Positions 2,573 to 40,992 of a DNA stretch of 64,000 nt are shown here, in pieces (position 1 is the stretch's first letter; every line of letters begins with the position of its first letter). The DNA lies in the sequence record MK327937.1. One strand, given 5' to 3'. A program made the translations under genes and the position numbers. This DNA is from Escherichia phage vB_EcoM_G10400. The notes under the pieces are model-generated. The model was not told the DNA's origin. It saw nothing but the letters and a program-made list of their open reading frames with translations, and ran no database searches.

Positions 2573-3588
2573 TGTGTTGCCTCTACATATAGCTGATTCG
2601 CATATTGAATAAGTGCTTCACGGTCAGAATCAGTGATGTCTGGAATTGCATTAATGTATTCTTCCATCAACGTCTGAAGAGATTGAACTTCAACTTCTTC
2701 ACTGTCATCTGACTCGACAGAGTTATCAATCTTTGACACAACTCGTAATGAATGCACAACTTTTTCTAGTTCAGATTCGAACTTCGTTAGATTTTTGTCT
2801 ACTTCAGTTACTATAACACGTACTGATAGATTTGTAAAATCTTTATAGTCAATTTTTCCTTTAAATGGATAATGAATTCTACGATGCCAAGTAGTGTTGT
2901 TTGGAATAAATTCCATTCGTTCTGTTTCTGTATCAAACATCCAGAACCCACGAGGGTCATTCTCGTCACCTGCAGTTAGTGTCCATGGTGTCCCAATATA
3001 TCTGACGTTTGCAGCCTCAGAAATAGTATGGAAGTGACCAGACCACACTTCTTTATAAGTCTTAAGGAAATCAGGTTCAAGACCGTGAGATTTCATTCCT
3101 TTATAAAAATAAAATCCATTCAGTTCCCAGTGACCAACGCAAAAAGAAGCAGATGAAGTTTTGATGTGCTCAAGAATTTCACCAGTATTTTCTTCACACA
3201 TCCAAGGAATTAAATCAATTAAACATCCGTCAAAATCTACTGTAGTAGGCTTATCATATACTTTAACATTAGGATATTTAGCCAAAAGCTCAGTAGAAGC
3301 ATTTGGATGCATTACATTTTTGTAGTGGAGATCGTGATTTCCTACAATAGTATGTAATGTGATTCCAGCACCATCAAGCATTTGAACTATTTCACGGGCA
3401 AACTCCATAGTTTTATGCGTGATCGCTTTTCGCACATCAAAAATATCACCGTATTGAATCCATACCGTAATTCCATTTTTCTTAGAATATTCTATCGCTT
3501 GCTTAATTCCATCAATTTGAATACCGCGAATCCACTCATCATCGGCTTTAACGCCTAAATGCCAATCACCTAAATTTAAAATTTTCAT
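2569..3588 (-). CDS. 47: Recombination endonuclease subunit gp47 (Mre11/SbcD-like phosphoesterase)
   Basis: 339 aa; calcineurin-like phosphoesterase motifs (GDWHLG, GDIFD, GNHD, GHWE); paired with gp46. Confidence 0.9.
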   Translation of the reverse strand: MKILNLGDWHLGVKADDEWIRGIQIDGIKQAIEYSKKNGITVWIQYGDIFDVRKAITHKTMEFAREIVQMLDGAGITLHTIVGNHDLHYKNVMHPNASTELLAKYPNVKVYDKPTTVDFDGCLIDLIPWMCEENTGEILEHIKTSSASFCVGHWELNGFYFYKGMKSHGLEPDFLKTYKEVWSGHFHTISEAANVRYIGTPWTLTAGDENDPRGFWMFDTETERMEFIPNNTTWHRRIHYPFKGKIDYKDFTNLSVRVIVTEVDKNLTKFESELEKVVHSLRVVSKIDNSVESDDSEEVEVQSLQTLMEEYINAIPDITDSDREALIQYANQLYVEATQ

Positions 3589-3750
3589 ATATCAAGAACC
3601 GTCATTGAAATGCAAAATAAAATTAATGAAATAAATCCATCTGGAGTGCTAAAGAACCCAATCCAACATGCTCTGGTGAACAAATAAAACGCTAGAAAAA
3701 GTATCACATATCCAAGAAATATCATTATATCAAACTCCGTATAAAGCTAA

Positions 3751-3764
3751 AGGGCCGAAGCCCT
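3751..3764 (-). terminator. UUCG-tetraloop hairpin at the a-gt 3' end
   Basis: Minus-strand RNA GGGCUUCGGCCC immediately after the a-gt stop codon; weak U-tract. Confidence 0.45.
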
Positions 3765-4967
3765 TTATTTTGTAATAATGTCAAATTGCTCTTTAAAGCA
3801 GAAGCTTGAATCTTGATGCTGATACAAAAATTCATAAGCTTTTTCACGTTCACGGTCATAAAGAGTTCGATCAGATGACAGTTCTTTAATACGTTCAAAT
3901 GTTGATTTCATATCATTTTCATCAAACCAAATGATACCGCTATCATGCGAGGTCAAAGGAGTATTATCAACACGGAATTTTAAATTTTCGCCAATAGATT
4001 TCCAAAATACCGGAATTGTTCCACATGCACCAAGCTCGAGATGAGTATATTCTAAAGAGCGCTGTAGATATTTTTTATCCAACTTACTCAACTGATAACC
4101 AAAACCGGATTTGCTCATGCGTTCAAGCATTTCGCTATTTACATAACGGTCAAGAATTTGCGTTGGCAAATTAGGAGCAATTTTAATTTGGTCTACTTGA
4201 TGAAGACGATAATACTCGTATGGAATTCCTTTTTCTTTAATAGGAATGAACGCTGGAGAACGTTCCAGACCTTCCATAATAGTACTTAGTCCTGCAGGTT
4301 TAAGATGTTTTTCGTGAAAATCAAACATCTGATAAAAGCCTTTCCATGTAGTAGTACGACCAATCCAACGGTTGATATTCATGTTAATTTCAGAAACATC
4401 TTTCCAGTAGGTTGATCGAACCTTCGCAATATCCATAGGAGGCTGAAAGTTATATACTGTCGGCGCTTCTTCAATATCATCAAACAAAGAAACTGTTTCA
4501 GGATACCATTCTTTCATCAGAACTTTATTAAAATCACCATTATCAGAATGGCTAAAAATAACATCAGCTCGACGAACAGTTTCTTCTAATCCCAAATTTC
4601 GGCGCAAAGAAAGAGAAGAATGGTCATGTTGATAAACTACAACACGAACAGAAGGTTTAATGTTATCAATAATTTTTTTATAGTTATTAATAGTGTCTTC
4701 TTCAACCGAAGTAGCAGGAACTGAATTGATAATTAGAATATCACAATCATTTACCAGCTTAAGTGTTTTATCATATTCTTTTGCCAATAAAACCGGAATT
4801 GAAAATGATTTATAATCATGCGCGCAATTACGAGTAAATGATTTATCTTTAGCATAAACCAAAGTTACTTCATGACCATTCTTAATAAACCAATCACGTT
4901 GCTCAAGAGAAAATTTAGTTACACCACAACCTTCAAGACCTCGAGCCATAAAAATACATACTTTCAT
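3765..4967 (-). CDS. a-gt: DNA alpha-glucosyltransferase
   Basis: 400 aa; N-terminus MKVCIFMARGLEGCGVTKF closely matches T4 alpha-glucosyltransferase as I recall it; same length and position. Confidence 0.85.
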   Translation of the reverse strand: MKVCIFMARGLEGCGVTKFSLEQRDWFIKNGHEVTLVYAKDKSFTRNCAHDYKSFSIPVLLAKEYDKTLKLVNDCDILIINSVPATSVEEDTINNYKKIIDNIKPSVRVVVYQHDHSSLSLRRNLGLEETVRRADVIFSHSDNGDFNKVLMKEWYPETVSLFDDIEEAPTVYNFQPPMDIAKVRSTYWKDVSEINMNINRWIGRTTTWKGFYQMFDFHEKHLKPAGLSTIMEGLERSPAFIPIKEKGIPYEYYRLHQVDQIKIAPNLPTQILDRYVNSEMLERMSKSGFGYQLSKLDKKYLQRSLEYTHLELGACGTIPVFWKSIGENLKFRVDNTPLTSHDSGIIWFDENDMKSTFERIKELSSDRTLYDREREKAYEFLYQHQDSSFCFKEQFDIITK

Positions 4968-5034: not shown

Positions 5035-5382
5035 TATCCACATAATACGCCATACAGAGGCTCGTTAGAACTTTTAAATTTTATGCGCTTATATTTTATA
5101 GTTCCTTCTGCTTTAGCTTTATCATGAGACGCTTTAAAGAGTCTCATCATTTCCTCTTTAGAGGAACGAATTTTATTATAATCTATTTCAGAAGTCTGGG
5201 TGTTCATCTTTCACAGTTGCCACCATTTTTTGACTTGGTAAGAATCAACCCACACTTTCATATTAGGGTCTGCTCTTACAATAGGAGGATTAACTTCTTT
5301 AATTGAACTATCATGGTATTCTTTTTCAGAAATTTTCACACAAAGATGACCATTCAAAGATTCAGTAAATCCTGCATTAATT

Positions 5383-5700
5383 TTAAGACGCTTGAATTTT
5401 ACGTGTGTAAGCATCAATCATATCCTCAATCTGCGATCTAGTAGTCTTCCAAAGAATACTGATGAGTTCATCGTTATATGGCTGTTTCAGAATATCCCGA
5501 CTTTTCTTGATAGCATATTCGTATTGAGCAAAATTATTATTTTCAGCTGCAATCTGAGCGTGCTTATAAAGACGATTCAGTTCGCGTTTGTTTTTAGACA
5601 ATAACTTATTTGCTTTTCTTTCTGCTTCAAGACGGTTCTTTTCTTCAATAGAAGAAATAAGCTTTTCCACTTCATCATTAATTTCGGGTTTATCAGTCAT
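5383..5700 (-). CDS. Hypothetical coiled-coil protein
   Basis: 105 aa, charged and helical; early-strand ORF between gene 55 and a-gt. Confidence 0.45.
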   Translation of the reverse strand: MTDKPEINDEVEKLISSIEEKNRLEAERKANKLLSKNKRELNRLYKHAQIAAENNNFAQYEYAIKKSRDILKQPYNDELISILWKTTRSQIEDMIDAYTRKIQAS

Positions 5701-5701
5701 A

Positions 5702-5920
5702 TTATTTCTCTAATATAAAATAAAAATCATCATCTGTTAAATGATACCGATAGTTTAATTCTACACCATTAGATTTAAAAGCGGTATCATACGGATTTTC
5801 TGGATCAATATCAATGTCAAGAGCTAAAACTTCCCTGAGATACATTTTAAGTAAATAGGGAATAGCTTCAACTTCAGGTATTTCTTCCAAGAATCCGGAG
5901 AGGTTAATCGTTAGCCTCAT
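5702..5920 (-). CDS. Hypothetical protein
   Basis: 72 aa ORF immediately downstream of gene 55. Confidence 0.4.
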
Positions 5921-27137: not shown

Positions 27138-27675
27138 TTACTATTTCCAAAAGTTTATTATTTTTAAGGTAATTAGCCTTTTCTAGGACTTCAGAAGCAT
27201 ATTTAGAACCTGCTTTAACATTCCATCCCGAATTATAAGAGGATATTGCTTTTCTTATATCGCCCTTATGTATATTTAACCAATAAGAAAGTTCAATGTA
27301 CGCCCAGGAAGCTGAATTGGACCGTTTATTCAACATTCTTTTTATTTCAGCATCGGTCATATTATAACCAAGTTCCTTAACTCTTGCTCGCATAGTAGGC
27401 AAATAATTTTGGAACATTCCGTAGGCGTGATGCTTTGCTTTAGATTTTAAATTAACTCCGCCAGAGCTTTCTTGCCATAAAATAGCAGCCATTATATGAC
27501 CCAATCCGCTCTTGTGGATATTTTTGTGTGTTTTATATTTTCCATCCTTAGAAAATTGTTCCCCGAATTGATACGCGTAACGCATGTTATCGAGTTGGAC
27601 ATTACTGAAAGTATGCTCGGAGCTATGTGCCATCATTGAAATGGCCAATAGACCAGCGAGTAGTGCTTTTCTCAT
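27130..27675 (-). CDS. Periplasmic lytic-transglycosylase-like protein
   Basis: 181 aa; signal peptide (MRKALLAGLLAISMMA); SLT-like catalytic motifs (WQESSGG … AYGMFQ). Confidence 0.55.
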   Translation of the reverse strand: MRKALLAGLLAISMMAHSSEHTFSNVQLDNMRYAYQFGEQFSKDGKYKTHKNIHKSGLGHIMAAILWQESSGGVNLKSKAKHHAYGMFQNYLPTMRARVKELGYNMTDAEIKRMLNKRSNSASWAYIELSYWLNIHKGDIRKAISSYNSGWNVKAGSKYASEVLEKANYLKNNKLLEIVND

Positions 27676-27682
27676 GCTTACC

Positions 27683-28144
27683 TCATTGAGTTTTAATTAC
27701 TGCTTTAGAAGCCTTTCCTGGTAAACGACGACTGTTGATAATTGCCATCCTGCATTGAAGTGACGGGTCTTTGAACTTCTCATTAGGCTTACAAACAGTA
27801 AATCCAAGCCAAAGATTTCCATCTGTGATTTCTAAACGTCCAGGACGATATTCAACCCCATCAATAAAATCCTCGTCAATGTCAGGACGCGGAGGCATAC
27901 TCAGGAATTCATTAACTTCTAAAACATGGTCTTTTATTTTATGGAATAATTCAAAAACATATGTCTCATCAATCTCCCGTTGAATTGCACGATCAAGAAG
28001 ATGTTGAGAATATTTTAGATGAAACGATGAGACTCCTGCTGCTTTTGATGCCTCACGAATCTCATTGTTAATTTGACGAAACTCCGACTCAAAGTGACGA
28101 CGAAGCTTATTTCGACGGATAAAAACTTCTGTATTGATAGTCAT
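27683..28144 (-). CDS. regB: Site-specific endoribonuclease RegB
   Basis: 153 aa; sequence and length match T4 RegB from memory; own early promoter at 28165-28210. Confidence 0.8.
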   Translation of the reverse strand: MTINTEVFIRRNKLRRHFESEFRQINNEIREASKAAGVSSFHLKYSQHLLDRAIQREIDETYVFELFHKIKDHVLEVNEFLSMPPRPDIDEDFIDGVEYRPGRLEITDGNLWLGFTVCKPNEKFKDPSLQCRMAIINSRRLPGKASKAVIKTQ

Positions 28145-35495: not shown

Positions 35496-35606
35496 TTAAA
35501 AAGTTTTAGGGAATTCTAGGGTCAGGAGGGGCAATTAAAAGATAGGATAATATATTATAAAGGGTAGAAACTAAATGATGCCTAGAGAGGCCCGGAAAGG
35601 CCTAGA

Positions 35607-35641
35607 TACCAAAAAGCCCCAACCTTTTGGTCGGGGCTAAG
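35607..35641 (-). terminator. Intrinsic terminator (repeat copy A)
   Basis: Minus-strand RNA AGCCCCGACC-AAAA-GGUUGGGGCU followed by UUUUUGGUA; 35 bp element repeated at 36166-36200. Confidence 0.6.
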
Positions 35642-35645
35642 AATG

Positions 35646-36119
35646 TTATTTGATTTGTTTAGCAGACCAAATGCGGTCTTTAATAATTTTTTGGATGTCT
35701 TCAACATACTCAAGAGAGTGAGCATGTGGGTTATCTTTGAAACTATAAGCACGAGCTAGCTTTTGGCCTTCAGTTTTGATTACTAAAAGCTCTTTAAGGA
35801 TAGCTTCATATTTAGAGATAATTCCTTTAACAATATTTTTTTCTTGTGCAGCTTTAGGATCTGCTTTAGGAGCAGGTTTACCTGAAGCCTTTGCAAAAGC
35901 AGCGCCAGTAGCAACTAAACTTTTCCAGGCCATACTAACTGCATTTCCCGTAAATCCTTCCGCTTTCATGTCGCGTGCGAACTGGAATCGCGATTCATCA
36001 GAAGCATCTTTATAAGAATATTTACCCGCTGCAATGGCTGCTTTTGCGACAGCTTGAATTTCGGTGCTAGATGCTTCATTTAACACCGCTTCATTTAAAA
36101 ATTGAGTATATGATTTCAT
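35646..36119 (-). CDS. Internal head protein candidate (divergent capsid-targeting sequence)
   Basis: 157 aa; N-terminus MKSYTQFLNEA resembles the internal-protein targeting sequence; a TATAAATA late promoter lies just upstream; alanine/lysine-rich body. Confidence 0.6.
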   Translation of the reverse strand: MKSYTQFLNEAVLNEASSTEIQAVAKAAIAAGKYSYKDASDESRFQFARDMKAEGFTGNAVSMAWKSLVATGAAFAKASGKPAPKADPKAAQEKNIVKGIISKYEAILKELLVIKTEGQKLARAYSFKDNPHAHSLEYVEDIQKIIKDRIWSAKQIK

Positions 36120-36159
36120 CTTATTTCCTGTTTTAATTTGTAGATATTTAATATACTAA

Positions 36160-36167
36160 TATTTATA
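36160..36167 (-). promoter_or_regulatory. Late promoter upstream of the internal-protein candidate
   Basis: TATAAATA on the minus strand, about 40 nt upstream of the ATG at 36119. Confidence 0.55.
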
Positions 36168-36200
36168 CCAAAAAGCCCCAACCTTTCGGTCGGGGCTAAG
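36166..36200 (-). terminator. Intrinsic terminator (repeat copy B; end of the tRNA/stable-RNA operon)
   Basis: Same 35 bp element with one substitution (GAAA loop), followed by a U-tract. Confidence 0.6.
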
Positions 36201-36510
36201 CCTTGCGGCAACCTTGTCGGGGTTCCACCTGCTAAGGCAAGTGTTTGTACGAAACGCCGGGATTCGAACCCGGTTATTAAGCAGTTGACGCTACTCAATA
36301 TTTTTAAAAGGCCATATCTCGACCATATCCGAACGTTCCGTCAAAAACACTACTCGGCTTACGGCAAAGATATTTCCTCGAATCGATAATTCGGTGCGCC
36401 GTTTCTGCTGTGATGTAAGAGGGCATCAATAAACGCAAAGATTATTAACGCAATTCCTTACTCAGGGAACATCAGTCCGACGACTTGCCGGTAGCGACCC
36501 GGCTTCTTGT
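36201..36510 (-). ncRNA. Candidate small stable RNA region (T4 species 1/2-like)
   Basis: About 310 nt with no ORF between the operon terminator and tRNA-Arg; contains a tRNA-like T-arm (CCGGGTTCGAATCCCGG on the minus strand, about 36257-36273) and extended stem pairing (ccttgc…gcaagg). Boundaries not determined. Confidence 0.4.
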
Positions 36511-36511
36511 C

Positions 36512-36587
36512 TGGTCGAGGCAGTAGGGATCGAACCTACGACCCAGGACTTAGAAGGTCCTTGCTCTTCCTTCTGAGCTATGCCCCG
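36512..36587 (-). tRNA. tRNA-Arg (anticodon UCU)
   Basis: Hand-folded cloverleaf: acceptor CGGGGCA/TGCCTCG, anticodon arm AGGAC-CTTCTAA-GTCCT, T-arm GGGTTCGATCC; CCA encoded. Confidence 0.85.
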
Positions 36588-36590
36588 TAA

Positions 36591-37256
36591 TTAAAATTTC
36601 ATTTTTCGACCTTTAAACCATCCTTCTGGAATTGGGTCAGTTTTCTTAATACGTTTAGAAACTTTTTCATCTAATGAATGAATCCACATCATGCCAAATT
36701 GGGAATTCTTTTCACCTTGTTGGTGTTTATTTCTGGCGTGAGATTCTTTCATTTTATTAATAGTTTCAGGAGTATGGGTCTTACCCAAGAAAGATTTAGT
36801 ATTTAAAAATTTCTCTCTATACTTAGGATTATCCCAAAGCTGTTTAAACCTTTCTGAACCCATTTTACGATATTTTTCTTTAAGGTCTGGGTCGTTCTCA
36901 AATCTGGTTTTAAAAGCGGCAGCTCCTTTTAAGGAAGCTTCTTTCTTTTTATCCAAATATTCTTTAGTGTTTAAATGGTCCCAACCACCTTCACCACCTA
37001 ATTTCAAATTATAAACATCAGAGCGCTTTAAAAACTCTTCAGTCACAATATTCTTTTCTGACTCAAACATAGAGGTTTTATCGTCAAAGAACTCTAATAT
37101 TTCTTTAGAAAAATTTTCTATACCATACTTATCTTGGGCTCTTTTTAATAATTTACCAGAACCCATATATCCATCATCTAAATTTTCGGTAGAATGAGCG
37201 CCTATATAGATTTTATTATTAATTTTATTTGTTATTTTATAAATGTAATGGAACAT
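36591..37256 (-). CDS. segB: GIY-YIG homing endonuclease SegB
   Basis: 221 aa; N-terminal GIY-YIG motif (YIYKITNKINNKIYIG); embedded in the tRNA cluster, as T4 segB is. Confidence 0.8.
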   Translation of the reverse strand: MFHYIYKITNKINNKIYIGAHSTENLDDGYMGSGKLLKRAQDKYGIENFSKEILEFFDDKTSMFESEKNIVTEEFLKRSDVYNLKLGGEGGWDHLNTKEYLDKKKEASLKGAAAFKTRFENDPDLKEKYRKMGSERFKQLWDNPKYREKFLNTKSFLGKTHTPETINKMKESHARNKHQQGEKNSQFGMMWIHSLDEKVSKRIKKTDPIPEGWFKGRKMKF

Positions 37257-37297
37257 AAATATCTCCTATTTCTAAGAGTATTTATGTTCTCAAAATA

Positions 37298-37369
37298 TGG
37301 CCCTGGGTGGAATTGAACCACCATCTGGCGATTATGAGTCGCTTGCTTGAACCTTCCAGCTACAGGGCC
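37298..37369 (-). tRNA. tRNA-Ile (gene anticodon CAU; would score as Met)
   Basis: Hand-folded: acceptor GGCCCTG/CAGGGCC, anticodon loop CTCATAA, T-arm GGTGGTTCAATTCCACC. Ile assignment follows the T4 tRNA set. Confidence 0.75.
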
Positions 37370-37375
37370 TTGATA

Positions 37376-37448
37376 TGCTGATTGACGGAATCGAACCGCC
37401 GACGTCCTCATTACAAGTGAGGTGCTCTACCTACTGAGCTAAATCAGC
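37376..37448 (-). tRNA. tRNA-Thr (anticodon UGU)
   Basis: Hand-folded: acceptor GCTGATT/AATCAGC, anticodon arm CCTCA-CTTGTAA-TGAGG, T-loop TTCGATT. Confidence 0.85.
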
Positions 37449-37455
37449 GAAATTA

Positions 37456-37542
37456 CGGAGGCGATAGGATTTGAACCTATGAGTCGCCGGAGCGACTGCC
37501 GGTTTTCAAGACCGGTGCATTAAACCACTCTGCCACGCCTCC
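37456..37542 (-). tRNA. tRNA-Ser (anticodon UGA)
   Basis: Hand-folded: acceptor GGAGGCG/CGCCTCC, anticodon arm CCGGT-CTTGAAA-ACCGG, long variable arm, T-loop TTCAAAT. Confidence 0.85.
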
Positions 37543-37544
37543 AG

Positions 37545-37618
37545 TCTCCGCGGCAGGATTTGAACCTACGACATTCTGCTCCCAAAGCAGATGCTCTACC
37601 AAACTGAGCTACACGGAG
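37545..37618 (-). tRNA. tRNA-Pro (anticodon UGG)
   Basis: Hand-folded: acceptor CTCCGTG/CGCGGAG, anticodon arm TCTGC-TTTGGGA-GCAGA, T-arm GTAGGTTCAAATCCTGC. Confidence 0.85.
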
Positions 37619-37630
37619 TAAATTAAATTT

Positions 37631-37702
<72 letters not shown>

Positions 37703-37708
37703 AAACTT

Positions 37709-37795
37709 TGGTACGAGAAGTGGGACTCGAACCCACAAGGAAATCATTCCGCAGCATTTTAAGTGCTGTGCCTTTACCAATTTGACCATTCTCGC
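37709..37795 (-). tRNA. tRNA-Leu (anticodon UAA)
   Basis: Hand-folded: acceptor GCGAGAA/TTCTCGT, anticodon arm CAGCA-CTTAAAA-TGCTG, long variable arm, T-arm GTGGGTTCGAGTCCCAC; CCA encoded. Confidence 0.85.
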
Positions 37796-37801
37796 GCTAT
37801 A

Positions 37802-38434
37802 TTATTTATTACGTGAAAAAGACTGTTCTATCAATTCTGGACACTTTCGTTCTATCCATTTTCTAGCTTTTTGTGGGCTTATACCTATTATTTTAGCAGC
37901 TTTACTAACCCATCCAAATTTAGAATAATCGATTTTAACTAATTCTTCGTAAATTTCATCAGTTAAAATCTTTTCATTAATATTTACCAGTAAATGATAT
38001 AATTTATTATCATTAGCAATTTTAATGAATCTTTTATAGTTTCCGCCTTTACTTAAACCTAATGAAGTAATTGCAGATGATATAGTAGCCGAATTTAATA
38101 GTGCGTTTAAAATTTCTTCATCACTAACATTATAACGCTTTTTATTATTTTTAATATTTTTACCAGCAAAAGTATCAGTTTGCGAATGGCAATTTGGACA
38201 TAATAATCTTAAATTTGATTTAAGATGATTTTTGTTATTTCCATCAATATGGTCTAATTGCAGAACAATATGCTTATTTTGCCATTTTGAAATTTTACAA
38301 ATTGCACACTCATATGGAAAAATATTTTCTTTTATTATTTTGTCTTTCAGCTTTCCTGTACTAAAATTTGGATGTTTTCCTTCAAAAATTTCAGCTAATT
38401 TAGTATCCATAATATGATTCCCAATTATTAACAA
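37802..38434 (-). CDS. HNH family homing endonuclease
   Basis: 210 aa; HNH core (…LQLDHIDGNNKNHLKSNLRLLCPNCHSQTD…) with flanking Cys pairs; stop codon 6 nt from the 5' end of tRNA-Leu. True start may be the internal ATG at 38410. Confidence 0.7.
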   Translation of the reverse strand: MLIIGNHIMDTKLAEIFEGKHPNFSTGKLKDKIIKENIFPYECAICKISKWQNKHIVLQLDHIDGNNKNHLKSNLRLLCPNCHSQTDTFAGKNIKNNKKRYNVSDEEILNALLNSATISSAITSLGLSKGGNYKRFIKIANDNKLYHLLVNINEKILTDEIYEELVKIDYSKFGWVSKAAKIIGISPQKARKWIERKCPELIEQSFSRNK

Positions 38435-38520
38435 AGGCTCTCAAACAAGAACCCTTGATGATAGAGGGTATTAATCAGTGCGGTATGAGTTAATAATAAC
38501 AAATAATTCTTAAAGCATAT

Positions 38521-38814
38521 TTACCATTTATGATAATACATATTTACGATGCATTCAAGGCCCAAAGGATTCCTGAAAATATCATATTCAAGAGGACCTT
38601 TTTCTGTTTCAATAAAGAAATCAAAATTTACTGTATTAAATTTACGGTCTTCCTTCACTAATTTAACTTGGGAAGATGAACGGTCAACATAAACCTTTTC
38701 AACTTCAAAACACGTTAAAACGCCATAATCATCAATCAAGGCTTTAGCCGCGTCTTGATCATATTTATATCCATTTTCAATGGACGATACTTTTGCATAA
38801 AGAATCATTATCAC
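38521..38814 (-). CDS. Hypothetical protein
   Basis: 97 aa ORF. Confidence 0.4.
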   Translation of the reverse strand: MIMILYAKVSSIENGYKYDQDAAKALIDDYGVLTCFEVEKVYVDRSSSQVKLVKEDRKFNTVNFDFFIETEKGPLEYDIFRNPLGLECIVNMYYHKW

Positions 38815-39191
38815 ACTCCGTAGTCTATCTTGACCAATCTACCTTTGTAGTAGCCAAAGTTCTTTGGAAAGGCATCATACTCAAAGAAATCACGGTCAAG
38901 CGTTCTGCATTCATCACCATCAACATCATTATAGAGCTTTTGCAAATCAGATTTAAAAAGCTCCTTATCCTCAACTGGCTCTGCTTTGTGCATCACAACC
39001 ATGAGACCAAATCTGTTTGAGTATGCTATTGGGCATAGGTATTTGTTATCATACCCCTTCCACTGACCTTCTGTAAGATTGCTGAGCATACCCTGCACGA
39101 AGTGTTTCCATGTCTTGGGGATAGGGAACTTAATAGCATACTTATGTGTTAGTAGTACCCATCTGGTTCCACCCGATTTAATTAATTTCAT
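38811..39191 (-). CDS. Hypothetical protein
   Basis: 126 aa ORF. Confidence 0.45.
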   Translation of the reverse strand: MKLIKSGGTRWVLLTHKYAIKFPIPKTWKHFVQGMLSNLTEGQWKGYDNKYLCPIAYSNRFGLMVVMHKAEPVEDKELFKSDLQKLYNDVDGDECRTLDRDFFEYDAFPKNFGYYKGRLVKIDYGV

Positions 39192-39265
39192 AGTCTCAGC
39201 TACCTCAATATTAATTTAAGCAATATCATTCCTGTAAGGTAGTACTTTAGCATAAAGAATCATTG

Positions 39266-39676
39266 TCAGCCTCTATCAACGATAGCATGAGTATGGGCAT
39301 TTACGATTTGCCACCAGTCGAAACGATTGAAACCATAATCTGGTTTATTTTCATTTTCTTTAATGATATCACGCAGCTTATCTTCTGTTTCAGCATACGC
39401 AATTAAATCATCATATCCACCACAAGGGTAATAATTATCACCTGCGAATAAAAGAAAATTTACCTTAGATGGATTTACATAATAATGGTCTTTAGGATAT
39501 TTAGTTCCTCTCCAATCAGTTACTTCAACATAACGGTAAGAAAATCCATTTTTACTTTCAATCCAACTCCACGCTTCAAAAGGAGTATTAAAAACTTTAT
39601 CAGGTATTAAATTACCTTCAAAATGAGAAGGATTTGCATAATCCCCAGCATAAACATAATATTCGTTAATACTCAT
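39266..39676 (-). CDS. Hypothetical protein
   Basis: 136 aa ORF, aromatic-rich. Confidence 0.45.
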   Translation of the reverse strand: MSINEYYVYAGDYANPSHFEGNLIPDKVFNTPFEAWSWIESKNGFSYRYVEVTDWRGTKYPKDHYYVNPSKVNFLLFAGDNYYPCGGYDDLIAYAETEDKLRDIIKENENKPDYGFNRFDWWQIVNAHTHAIVDRG

Positions 39677-39862
39677 TTATTCACCTTTAGAAATTTTATC
39701 CATAACGATAGCAATTAAACCAATTAAAAATGCTACTACAAGTGAAAACGCATTTTCTGCTGTAGTTAATAATCCGCATATAAATCCAACAAACATTGAA
39801 AAACTAAAAGCAGAAGCAGAAATTGCAATAGCAACATTTCGAATTAATTCACAGCGTTTCAT
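39677..39862 (-). CDS. Small membrane protein
   Basis: 61 aa with two hydrophobic helices; downstream of the early promoter at 39885-39935. Confidence 0.4.
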   Translation of the reverse strand: MKRCELIRNVAIAISASAFSFSMFVGFICGLLTTAENAFSLVVAFLIGLIAIVMDKISKGE

Positions 39863-39884
39863 TTTATTCTCCTCAGTAGTTGAT

Positions 39885-39935
39885 AGGGTAATAGTATCAC
39901 AACTAAAACCCTATGTAAACAACTTTGTGAAAAAT
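39885..39935 (-). promoter_or_regulatory. T4-type early promoter
   Basis: -35 GTTTAC (plus 39915-39920), -10 block atagtatcac; inverted repeat taggg…cccta spans the -10. Confidence 0.55.
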
Positions 39936-39938
39936 TTA

Positions 39939-40223
39939 TTACAAAAGATTTTTAGCAATAATTTTAAGCTGAGCTACTGAAATATGCTTGGCTTTAAACA
40001 AAGCAGTTTCTTCAGCAGGGGAGATAATGATTGTAGCACCATCTTTCTTAGCGGACCATCCATCACCCAGGTAAACAGTACCTTTAACTTCTTCGCCATC
40101 AACCAGGCTAATCATCGGTTTACCTTCACGTCCTTTGTTTGCTTTAATAACTTCAGAAGTAAGGGTCGCTTCAGTCAAAGTAGAAGCGTTAGTCGTTGAA
40201 GTGAATTCTTGATAAGTTTTCAT
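39939..40223 (-). CDS. Internal head protein at the ipI locus (divergent from T4 IPI)
   Basis: 94 aa; N-terminus MKTYQEF is the capsid-targeting sequence; sits immediately before 57B, where T4 has ipI; the body does not match T4 IPI as I recall it. Confidence 0.6.
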   Translation of the reverse strand: MKTYQEFTSTTNASTLTEATLTSEVIKANKGREGKPMISLVDGEEVKGTVYLGDGWSAKKDGATIIISPAEETALFKAKHISVAQLKIIAKNLL

Positions 40224-40244
40224 TTTATTTTCCTAATTAATTTT

Positions 40245-40295
40245 GATGAGGTAATAGTATCACTACCTCATCAGCATGTAAACAACTTTGTGAAA
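40245..40295 (-). promoter_or_regulatory. T4-type early promoter (ipI locus) with a palindrome around the -10
   Basis: -35 GTTTAC (plus 40278-40283), -10 block taatagtatcac; 9 bp inverted repeat gatgaggta/tacctcatc (40245-40271). Confidence 0.55.

Positions 40296-40992
<697 letters not shown>

Follow-up and report, generated by a model that had tools for sequence, protein, structure and literature searches.

In T4, as in phage PP01, a gene for tRNA-Gln lies 1 nucleotide (nt) upstream of tRNA-Leu in the tRNA cluster. In Escherichia phage vB_EcoM_G10400, no tRNA-Gln is present at this position, and an open reading frame (ORF) for an HNH endonuclease adjoins tRNA-Leu. The question raised by this locus is whether the endonuclease gene has replaced tRNA-Gln or whether the lineage never had this tRNA. 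The locus was analysed in a stretch of 64 kb from this phage (record MK327937.1), referred to as the window; coordinates are positions in the window, and the genes at the locus are all located on the minus strand. The window derives from a Tequatrovirus, a T4-like phage, with best 24-kb database matches that are about 96% identical, and no database record identical to the window was found.

Both options had been left standing by a sequence-only reading of the window, which described the HNH ORF as ending 6 nt from the 5' end of tRNA-Leu, gave the order Leu-Gly-Pro-Ser-Thr-Ile, segB, Arg for the cluster and noted that tRNA-Gln is missing where T4 has it. These observations were confirmed (Table 1), with ARAGORN and Rfam concordantly identifying seven tRNAs on the minus strand in the order Leu-Gly-Pro-Ser-Thr-Met(CAU)-Arg in the direction of transcription. 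The ORF itself is real, but its 5' end had to be corrected. The version given by the ORF finder, 37802-38434, begins at a mechanical TTG start at 38434, and the start is probably the ATG at 38410, because homologues and all annotated relatives begin there (the relatives annotate 609 nt). Of the two options, replacement is upheld and the absence of tRNA-Gln from the whole history of the lineage is contradicted. The ORF is proposed to encode a free-standing homing endonuclease from the HNH superfamily, in the branch of F-TflIV (T5 hegA); the gene would have replaced tRNA-Gln and would spread by homing, and the probability of this reading as a whole is about 0.7. That the ORF is an intact F-TflIV-like HNH gene that took the place of tRNA-Gln is held with near certainty.

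The replacement is seen most directly at the junctions, for which eight HNH-carrying genomes were aligned with six tRNA-Gln-carrying genomes. After trna.2, the leader is alike in both groups through TGGGAAT[T/C]A, which is the first 7-9 nt of tRNA-Gln, and in the carriers this 5' stub is directly followed by TATT-ATG. At the 3' junction, the carriers read ...TAATAATATAG-[C/A]-GCGAGAATGG (the last part being tRNA-Leu), whereas the non-carriers read ...TTCCCAG-C-GCGAGAATGG. Both junctions are identical in all eight carriers, with the stub present, and the 6-base spacer before tRNA-Leu varies among carriers (TATAGC, TATAGA or TATAAC). On both sides, in the leader upstream and in tRNA-Leu downstream, the sequence agrees with that of the tRNA-Gln-carrying phages as far as breakpoints that lie within tRNA-Gln or at its edges. 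At the head of the operon, nt ~10-72 of tRNA-Gln are replaced by a cassette of ~620 bp. No tRNA-Gln was identified in the 64-kb window by ARAGORN, and none was hidden at 35.5-40.5 kb at a permissive Rfam threshold. A hidden or split gene was rejected, as the two programs gave the seven tRNAs only and no 3' half of tRNA-Gln at the locus. A relocated copy was likewise not found in the complete genome of the HNH-carrying relative teqhad, for which the whole-genome scan gave ten tRNAs.

The alternative, that the HNH arrangement is ancestral and that T4 and most of its relatives acquired tRNA-Gln by a later insertion, would agree with diverged T4-like phages, in which the tRNA cluster likewise begins with an HNH homologue. 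However, the carriers keep the first 7-9 nt of tRNA-Gln exactly where the gene begins in the non-carriers, and in the Marfavirus group the homologue adjoins an intact tRNA-Gln and replaces tRNA-Asn instead. In addition, tRNA-Gln is found at this position in Tequatrovirus, in Marfavirus and in T4-like phages of Enterobacter, Serratia and Erwinia, and therefore its presence was taken as the ancestral state. Because of the matching flanks, the 5' stub and the conservation of tRNA-Gln in other genera, replacement was preferred, and a lineage that never had tRNA-Gln is regarded as very improbable.

How the original insertion was seeded can be addressed by a speculative suggestion. SegB, the homing endonuclease encoded in the same cluster, cuts preferentially just past a CCAR motif at the 3' ends of tRNAs, tRNA-Gln included (PMC2330249). 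Since tRNA-Gln ends in ...CCCAG and the 3' junction of the cassette falls exactly there, a break made by SegB at the 3' end of tRNA-Gln might have seeded the insertion.

The tRNA-Gln genes themselves also vary. Between otherwise near-identical phages, alleles differ by clustered, seemingly compensatory changes in the anticodon stem and the T-arm, as seen for T4 (L004, 3959-4031) and PP01 (L001, 2900-2973) and for the pair L006 (4911-4986) and L101 (5200-5272). Such clustered alleles occur both in Tequatrovirus and in the Klebsiella T4-like group, with nuclease resistance or evasion of a host anticodon nuclease as possible causes. In phage FL08 (L098, ~2950-2971), tRNA-Gln has one C of the D-arm missing (TTAGC-AAGTTGG versus TTAGCCAAGTTGG), which could be a sequencing error or a damaged allele.

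For the HNH protein, a full-length match to phrog_14736 ('HNH endonuclease') was obtained at 5e-124, together with matches to phrog_10822 (2.5e-29) and to the PADLOC 'homing endonuclease' model (HEase, PDLC03673; 2.8e-19). The closest named relative is T5 hegA ('H-N-H endonuclease TflIV'), with 35% identity over amino acids 16-184 in tblastn and BLASTP (E 2e-22). The residues C35, C38, H54, N66 and C71-P-N-C-H75 are invariant in three alignments (14, 43 and 42 homologues, with T5 F-TflIV among them), and so are the H-N-H/N residues of the superfamily, D53-H54, N66 and N73/H75, so that the catalytic residues implied by the earlier call of an HNH enzyme are intact. The invariant pairs C35-x2-C38 and C71-x2-C74 are predicted to form the two CxxC pairs of a structural zinc site. 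In the AlphaFold model (mean predicted local distance difference test score, pLDDT, 90.7) the predicted fold is HNH-like, with a beta-beta-alpha-metal core. The C-terminal half consists of helical modules with weak helix-turn-helix (HTH) signals and contains a GWV...PQK..W motif in common with F-TflIV. Sequence searches of the PDB with the HNH protein gave no match.

The gene is under purifying selection. In comparison to homologues of 58-68% identity in the same syntenic slot, the ratio of non-synonymous to synonymous divergence (dN/dS) is 0.12-0.28, and among eight Tequatrovirus copies the variable codons comprise 15 synonymous and two non-synonymous ones, without stops. Two other HNH types were considered and rejected. 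A Mob-type HNH paralogue was rejected since tblastn against the whole teqhad genome, the window and the tRNA region of T4 found only the gene itself, other hits having E > 0.2. An intron-encoded HNH type, like I-HmuI or I-TevIII, was rejected since Rfam at E of at most 0.1 gave only tRNAs and noise, and no group I intron, in positions 35500-40500. Annotations as 'HNH endonuclease' or 'F-TflIV' are already present in dozens of records, and the protein is not a new kind of system.

The distribution of the cassette was used to ask how it spreads. At an identity of at least 95%, the gene is carried by 63 records (including some GenBank/RefSeq duplicates), all of them full length and with both flanks contiguous, which gives one fixed site. 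Related records with tRNA-Gln number ~440, an estimate from an evenly spaced listing; about one Tequatrovirus record in eight (~12%) thus carries the HNH gene, and ~88% are without it and retain tRNA-Gln. The cassette was found together with three types of downstream cluster, namely the T4 type with segB (the window and T4_ev151), a Tyr-containing type (Pu-Krd-SF5) and the T2 type of teqhad (Tyr-Asn-His, without segB). PhiZZ30, the best backbone match of the window, is without the cassette. Carriers and non-carriers have no fixed differences in 57B, trna.4, trna.2, the leader, the tRNAs or the e.8 region, and identity between the groups equals that within them. The HNH gene has a mean identity of 99.2% among carriers, versus 95.9-97.8% in neighbouring genes, and a pairwise synonymous divergence (dS) of 0.041, versus 0.10-0.12 in trna.2, trna.4 and 57B. 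This pattern fits a cassette that spreads horizontally by homing across diverged backbones, and is supportive rather than decisive.

The only consistent difference between the two alleles is the cassette versus the body of tRNA-Gln. Because a nuclease that spares its own genome needs a sequence that distinguishes the alleles, and such a sequence is found only there, the target of the HNH nuclease is inferred to overlap tRNA-Gln or the Gln/Leu junction, within about 65 bp. In a co-infection with a relative bearing tRNA-Gln, the enzyme would nick or cut the allele without the HNH gene, in or beside the tRNA-Gln/tRNA-Leu junction, and recombinational repair would then copy the cassette from the HNH genome, so that tRNA-Gln is converted to the HNH gene. 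The carrier genome would be immune, its target site being gone. That the HNH protein currently homes by cutting at or near this junction appears a little better than an even chance.

In the proposed arrangement, the HNH ORF would be the first cistron of the tRNA-operon transcript, made from a conserved middle-type promoter just downstream of trna.2. The promoter-like element directly past the trna.2 stop is identical in HNH-carrying and tRNA-Gln-carrying genomes, including T4, and presumably fits the T4 middle-promoter consensus. A consensus scan for a sigma-70 promoter or a terminator of its own near the HNH ORF gave signals at background level only. Ribosomes may bind weakly at the GGGAA of the tRNA-Gln stub, which lies 8 nt ahead of the ATG, and such a weak site would lead to low expression of the HNH protein, as has been proposed for segB. 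Cleavage by RNase P at the 5' end of tRNA-Leu would sever the mRNA 6 nt beyond the HNH stop codon. For T4, transcription of the entire tRNA/segB precursor was reported to start from a middle promoter immediately before the cluster, and RNase P-type processing was proposed as a brake on segB and the T5 F-Tfl genes (PMC2330249).

Homing endonuclease genes have replaced tRNA genes repeatedly, as parallel cases were identified for tRNA-Asn, tRNA-Leu2 and tRNA-Pro. Homologues of the HNH protein with 58-68% identity (P0002-P0004) are present in the same slot of diverged T4-like contigs, in the order gp2, gp3, gp1, 57A, 57B, trna.x, HNH, tRNAs. The contig L006 groups with vB_Kpn_F48 (Marfavirus) and the Klebsiella T4-like phages. 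F48 has the order tRNA-Met, tRNA-Gln, tRNA-Asn, spacer, and L006 has the HNH cassette in place of tRNA-Asn, with near-identical flanks on both sides and tRNA-Gln intact beside the HNH gene. In T5-like phages, hegA is present in 23 of 328 records. Where T5 has hegA (L005, 3791-4500), Salmonella phage 5 has a small ORF and tRNA-Leu2(UAA) (L102, 608-862), and T5 retains the last 7-8 nt of tRNA-Leu2 (CCTACCAAA), beginning 9 nt past the hegA stop. In Shigella phage CM8 (L096, 2410-3018), the place of tRNA-Pro, between tRNA-Gly and tRNA-Ser, is taken by the gene of a SegB paralogue of 202 amino acids, which stops 6 nt short of tRNA-Ser. The paralogue shares 82% identity with SegB in the GIY-YIG domain and has a different C-terminus. 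Full-text searches of the literature, the coverage of which is incomplete, gave no account of the exact replacement of tRNA-Gln or of its parallels.

Several observations were made beside these loci. A cluster of substitutions in the tRNA-Gln next to the HNH gene of L006 was considered as a mark of immunity or co-conversion and rejected, since the same allele is present in an HNH-less phage. Between tRNA genes of the Klebsiella phages lies a GC-rich stretch of ~400 nt without an ORF (5604-6009 in L006, ~5363-5778 in F48, L101), which is ~98% conserved and has no Rfam match; it could give rise to a stable structured RNA, by analogy to the species 1 and 2 RNAs of T4. The C-terminal HTH of the CM8 SegB paralogue resembles that of the HNH protein, with 12 of 24 residues identical. 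PhiZZ30 (L097, ~2109-2769) has an unannotated gap of equal size in the tRNA-Pro slot and retains tRNA-Gln. In the diverged T4-like contig L007, a sub-threshold match to the tmRNA family RF00023 (10343-10412; 29.9 bits, gathering threshold 47) directly follows tRNA-Met.

Both the distribution and the parallel replacements bear on the possibility that the gene is an inactive passenger, or one that no longer homes, which inserted once long ago and has been distributed only by the frequent homologous recombination of T4-type phages. A passenger would be compatible with a gene diversity that is reduced but above zero (dS 0.041), with carriage by only ~12% of the records, with a weak ribosome-binding site and no dedicated promoter, and with undifferentiated flanks, which are also expected from free recombination. 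However, purifying selection is strong within and between lineages, all 63 copies are full length with invariant catalytic residues, and a synonymous diversity below that of the neighbours is unexpected for a neutral passenger of equal age. An active, site-directed process is also favoured by the relatives, which replaced tRNA genes independently in two other groups of phages. An inactive passenger is therefore considered unlikely.

The association with tRNA genes extends to distant members of the family, which were the only ones returned by IMG/VR (80 loci, L009-L088) and were used for statistics on tRNA association. In 74 of these 80 loci, tRNAs are present within 3 kb, and in 59 one lies within 150 nt of the ORF. 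The F-TflIV-like ORFs very often end at most 10 nt from the 5' end of a tRNA on the same strand, or overlap the tRNA. For 12 of 25 distinct ORFs, the tRNA at the stop codon (tRNA start at -25 to +20 nt) is tRNA-Leu, against a background of 60 of 509, which corresponds to an odds ratio of 8.4 (Fisher p 3.9e-6) in a test that ignores phylogeny. The 12 ORFs abutting tRNA-Leu form 12 clusters at 70% identity and occupy 6 of 13 clusters at 50%. The bias is strongest for Leu-UAA, and the layout in the window is the commonest one in the family. Matches of the window protein in tblastn also include HNH genes beside tRNAs in Gordonia and Streptomyces phages. It is a tentative suggestion that the F-TflIV-like HNH endonucleases might constitute a widespread homing guild specialised on phage tRNA arrays, which would recognise a tRNA-gene sequence, often the 5' edge of tRNA-Leu, with a stop codon abutting the next tRNA and the neighbouring tRNA being deleted on insertion.

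The family-wide association with tRNA arrays could, on the other hand, also mean a functional link. Here, the nuclease would be kept for a benefit to the phage, either the exclusion of competitors' markers or an effect on expression of the tRNA operon, or the loss of tRNA-Gln would be advantageous on some hosts. This agrees with the presence of the gene in the same syntenic slot of diverged T4-like phages at dN/dS below 0.3, and a stabilising effect of homing endonucleases on the markers of their own phage during mixed infection has been discussed (PMC2330249). However, ~88% of close relatives do without the gene and have tRNA-Gln, and no similarity to defence effectors past the common HNH domain was identified. 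Moreover, marker exclusion is mechanistically the same as homing, so this explanation differs in interpretation more than in mechanism. Retention for a phage benefit is considered quite unlikely.

A number of points weigh against the preferred reading, that of an F-TflIV-like gene which replaced tRNA-Gln and spreads by homing. For the HNH protein, homing and marker exclusion are predictions from sequence, and the target site is deduced solely from the difference between the alleles. Synonymous diversity is lowered moderately, about 2.5-3-fold, and stays well above zero, in a sample of eight genomes, and ordinary recombination without active homing could yield the same mosaic pattern. A single conserved target for the family is not established, as the replaced tRNA varies by lineage (Gln, Asn, Leu). 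On the protein level, the match to PF01844 scores 17.3 bits, below the gathering threshold of 21.4, and Foldseek with the whole model gave no significant match. The promoter was assigned from its identity in T4 and a presumed fit to the middle-promoter consensus, and a leader hairpin that sequesters the ribosome-binding site, as in other T4 endonuclease genes, is unsupported, since the leader folds like shuffled sequence (z = -0.3). With respect to the PF01844 score, T5 hegA is likewise sub-threshold (16.2 bits), and a 58%-identical homologue, P0003, passes with 26.5 bits. Because the window protein and T5 hegA fall below the threshold and P0003 above it, the F-TflIV-like family is a divergent HNH subgroup.

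Among known systems, the most similar is F-TflIV of T5, which Akulenko et al. in 2004 reportedly described as an H-N-H site-specific endonuclease. The similarity to T5 hegA covers 84% of the protein, including both the HNH core and the C-terminal GW...HTH region. Like the window gene, hegA is free-standing, lies inside a tRNA cluster directly beside a tRNA gene, occurs in a minority of relatives and takes a tRNA slot with a terminal stub left. In contrast to the window protein, hegA has an additional N-terminal HTH of the LuxR/GerE type of ~55 amino acids, whereas the window protein has an additional helical module in the middle. T5 also belongs to the Demerecviridae, while the window phage belongs to the Straboviridae; the displaced tRNA is Leu in T5 and Gln in the window, and the stub is a 3' one in T5 and a 5' one in the window. 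As cited in PMC2330249 and PMC5714182, F-TflI, II and IV of T5 are site-specific endonuclease genes in the tRNA cluster.

SegB is the proven homing endonuclease of the cluster and recognises a T-arm sequence of tRNAs (PMC2330249). Like the HNH gene, segB of T4 is a free-standing gene of this operon, shares its transcript with the tRNAs, has its stop codon next to the 5' end of a tRNA and shows presence/absence polymorphism among T-even phages. It targets tRNA-gene sequences and drives the inheritance of the surrounding tRNA region. Unlike the HNH protein, SegB belongs to the GIY-YIG superfamily, without similarity in the catalytic domain, and homing was experimentally shown for SegB but is predicted from sequence for the HNH protein. 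In T4 compared to T2L, segB and its flanking tRNA genes occupy the place of a block of two ORFs and four extra tRNA genes, and not that of one tRNA gene (PMC2330249).

MobA-E and I-TevIII of T4 and I-HmuI belong, like the window protein, to the HNH (His-Me finger) superfamily in the broad sense; among them, the genes for the Mob proteins are also free-standing, in T4-like genomes. The domain architecture of these proteins, however, differs from that of the window protein. The Mob proteins and F-TflIV were both placed in group 1 (PMC5714182). HNH genes are also common in the tRNA arrays of mycobacteriophages and mycobacterial plasmids, and were proposed to drive their diversity and spread (PMC5966550, PMC6409571). 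Unlike the locus in the window, these arrays were reported at the level of gene content, without precise filled and empty junctions or the replacement of a tRNA by an HNH gene. The mycobacteriophage arrays with HNH endonuclease genes are said to have been described by Pope in 2014.

The sequence-only reading had also proposed that two homing-endonuclease families in one tRNA operon make the cluster a hotspot. This idea gains comparative support from SegB, proven for this cluster, and from the SegB paralogue in the tRNA-Pro slot of CM8. The segB product of the window matches Pfam GIY-YIG at 7.5e-6 and is 83% identical to T4 SegB across all 221 amino acids. The features of the locus are collected in Table 1.

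Table 1. Features of the tRNA operon and its flanks in the window of vB_EcoM_G10400.
Feature	Position	Strand	Evidence
tRNA-Arg(UCU), final tRNA of the cluster	36512-36587	-	ARAGORN, Rfam
segB, GIY-YIG homing endonuclease gene, 221 amino acids, between the Ile and Arg tRNAs	36591-37256	-	
tRNA-Gly to Ile(CAU) block (Gly, Pro, Ser, Thr, Ile)	37298-37702	-	ARAGORN, Rfam
tRNA-Met-CAU (tRNA-Ile in the T4 record annotation)	37298-37369	-	ARAGORN, Rfam
tRNA-Thr	37376-37448	-	ARAGORN, Rfam
tRNA-Ser	37455-37543	-	ARAGORN, Rfam
tRNA-Pro	37544-37618	-	ARAGORN, Rfam
tRNA-Gly	37631-37702	-	ARAGORN, Rfam
tRNA-Leu(UAA), adjoining the HNH ORF	37709-37795	-	ARAGORN, Rfam
Spacer TATAGC between HNH stop codon and tRNA-Leu 5' end (3' junction)	37796-37801	-	junction alignment
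HNH ORF, 202 amino acids, ATG at 38410, stop TAA at 37802-37804	37802-38410	-	
C-terminal helical region, two HTH-like modules, ~amino acids 97-190, presumed DNA recognition	37841-38122	-	
Predicted zinc-finger HNH (beta-beta-alpha-metal) nuclease core, ~amino acids 30-85, CxxC...DH...N...CPNCH	38156-38323	-	
tRNA-Gln 5' stub, 5' junction of the cassette, TGGGAATCA (relatives: TGGGAATTA)	38415-38423	-	junction alignment
Middle-promoter-like element: MotA-box-like ATGCTTTA at 38518-38511, 12 nt, -10 TATTAT at 38498-38493	38493-38518	-	
trna.2 homologue, conserved upstream neighbour in both allele types	38521-38808	-	phrog_2023, 6.7e-47

On either side of trna.2, the head of the operon is variable in further respects. 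A 126-amino-acid ORF with a match to phrog_4301 (function unknown) is located between trna.2 and trna.3 at 38811-39191 on the minus strand, and the alignments of most relatives to the window stop at ~38813, which indicates a mosaic boundary. An ORF of 381 nt is present at this position in PhiZZ30, FL08, JEP6 and CM8, and none is there in T4. In some genomes, HNH carriers and non-carriers alike, an additional ORF of 516 nt (VOG0448) lies between trna.2 and the promoter/leader, at 3614-4129 in Killian (L095), 3945-4460 in CM8 (L096), 27321-27836 in teqhad (L090) and 2654-3169 in SHFML-26 (L099), and its presence or absence constitutes a further, independent polymorphism of the operon head.

For the biology of these phages, the locus provides a clean, base-resolved case of a selfish nuclease gene that removes a phage tRNA gene, with filled and empty alleles that are otherwise identical. 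The likely target is narrowed to ~65 bp at the tRNA-Gln/tRNA-Leu junction, and is hence open to direct test. From the parallel replacements it seems that the set of tRNAs carried by a phage is determined in part by homing endonucleases, which bears on the current interest in phage tRNAs as countermeasures to host defences that target tRNAs. If the suggested F-TflIV-like guild exists, it would be a main driver of the gain, loss and exchange of tRNAs in phage repertoires, with the loss of tRNA-Gln in the window as one instance.

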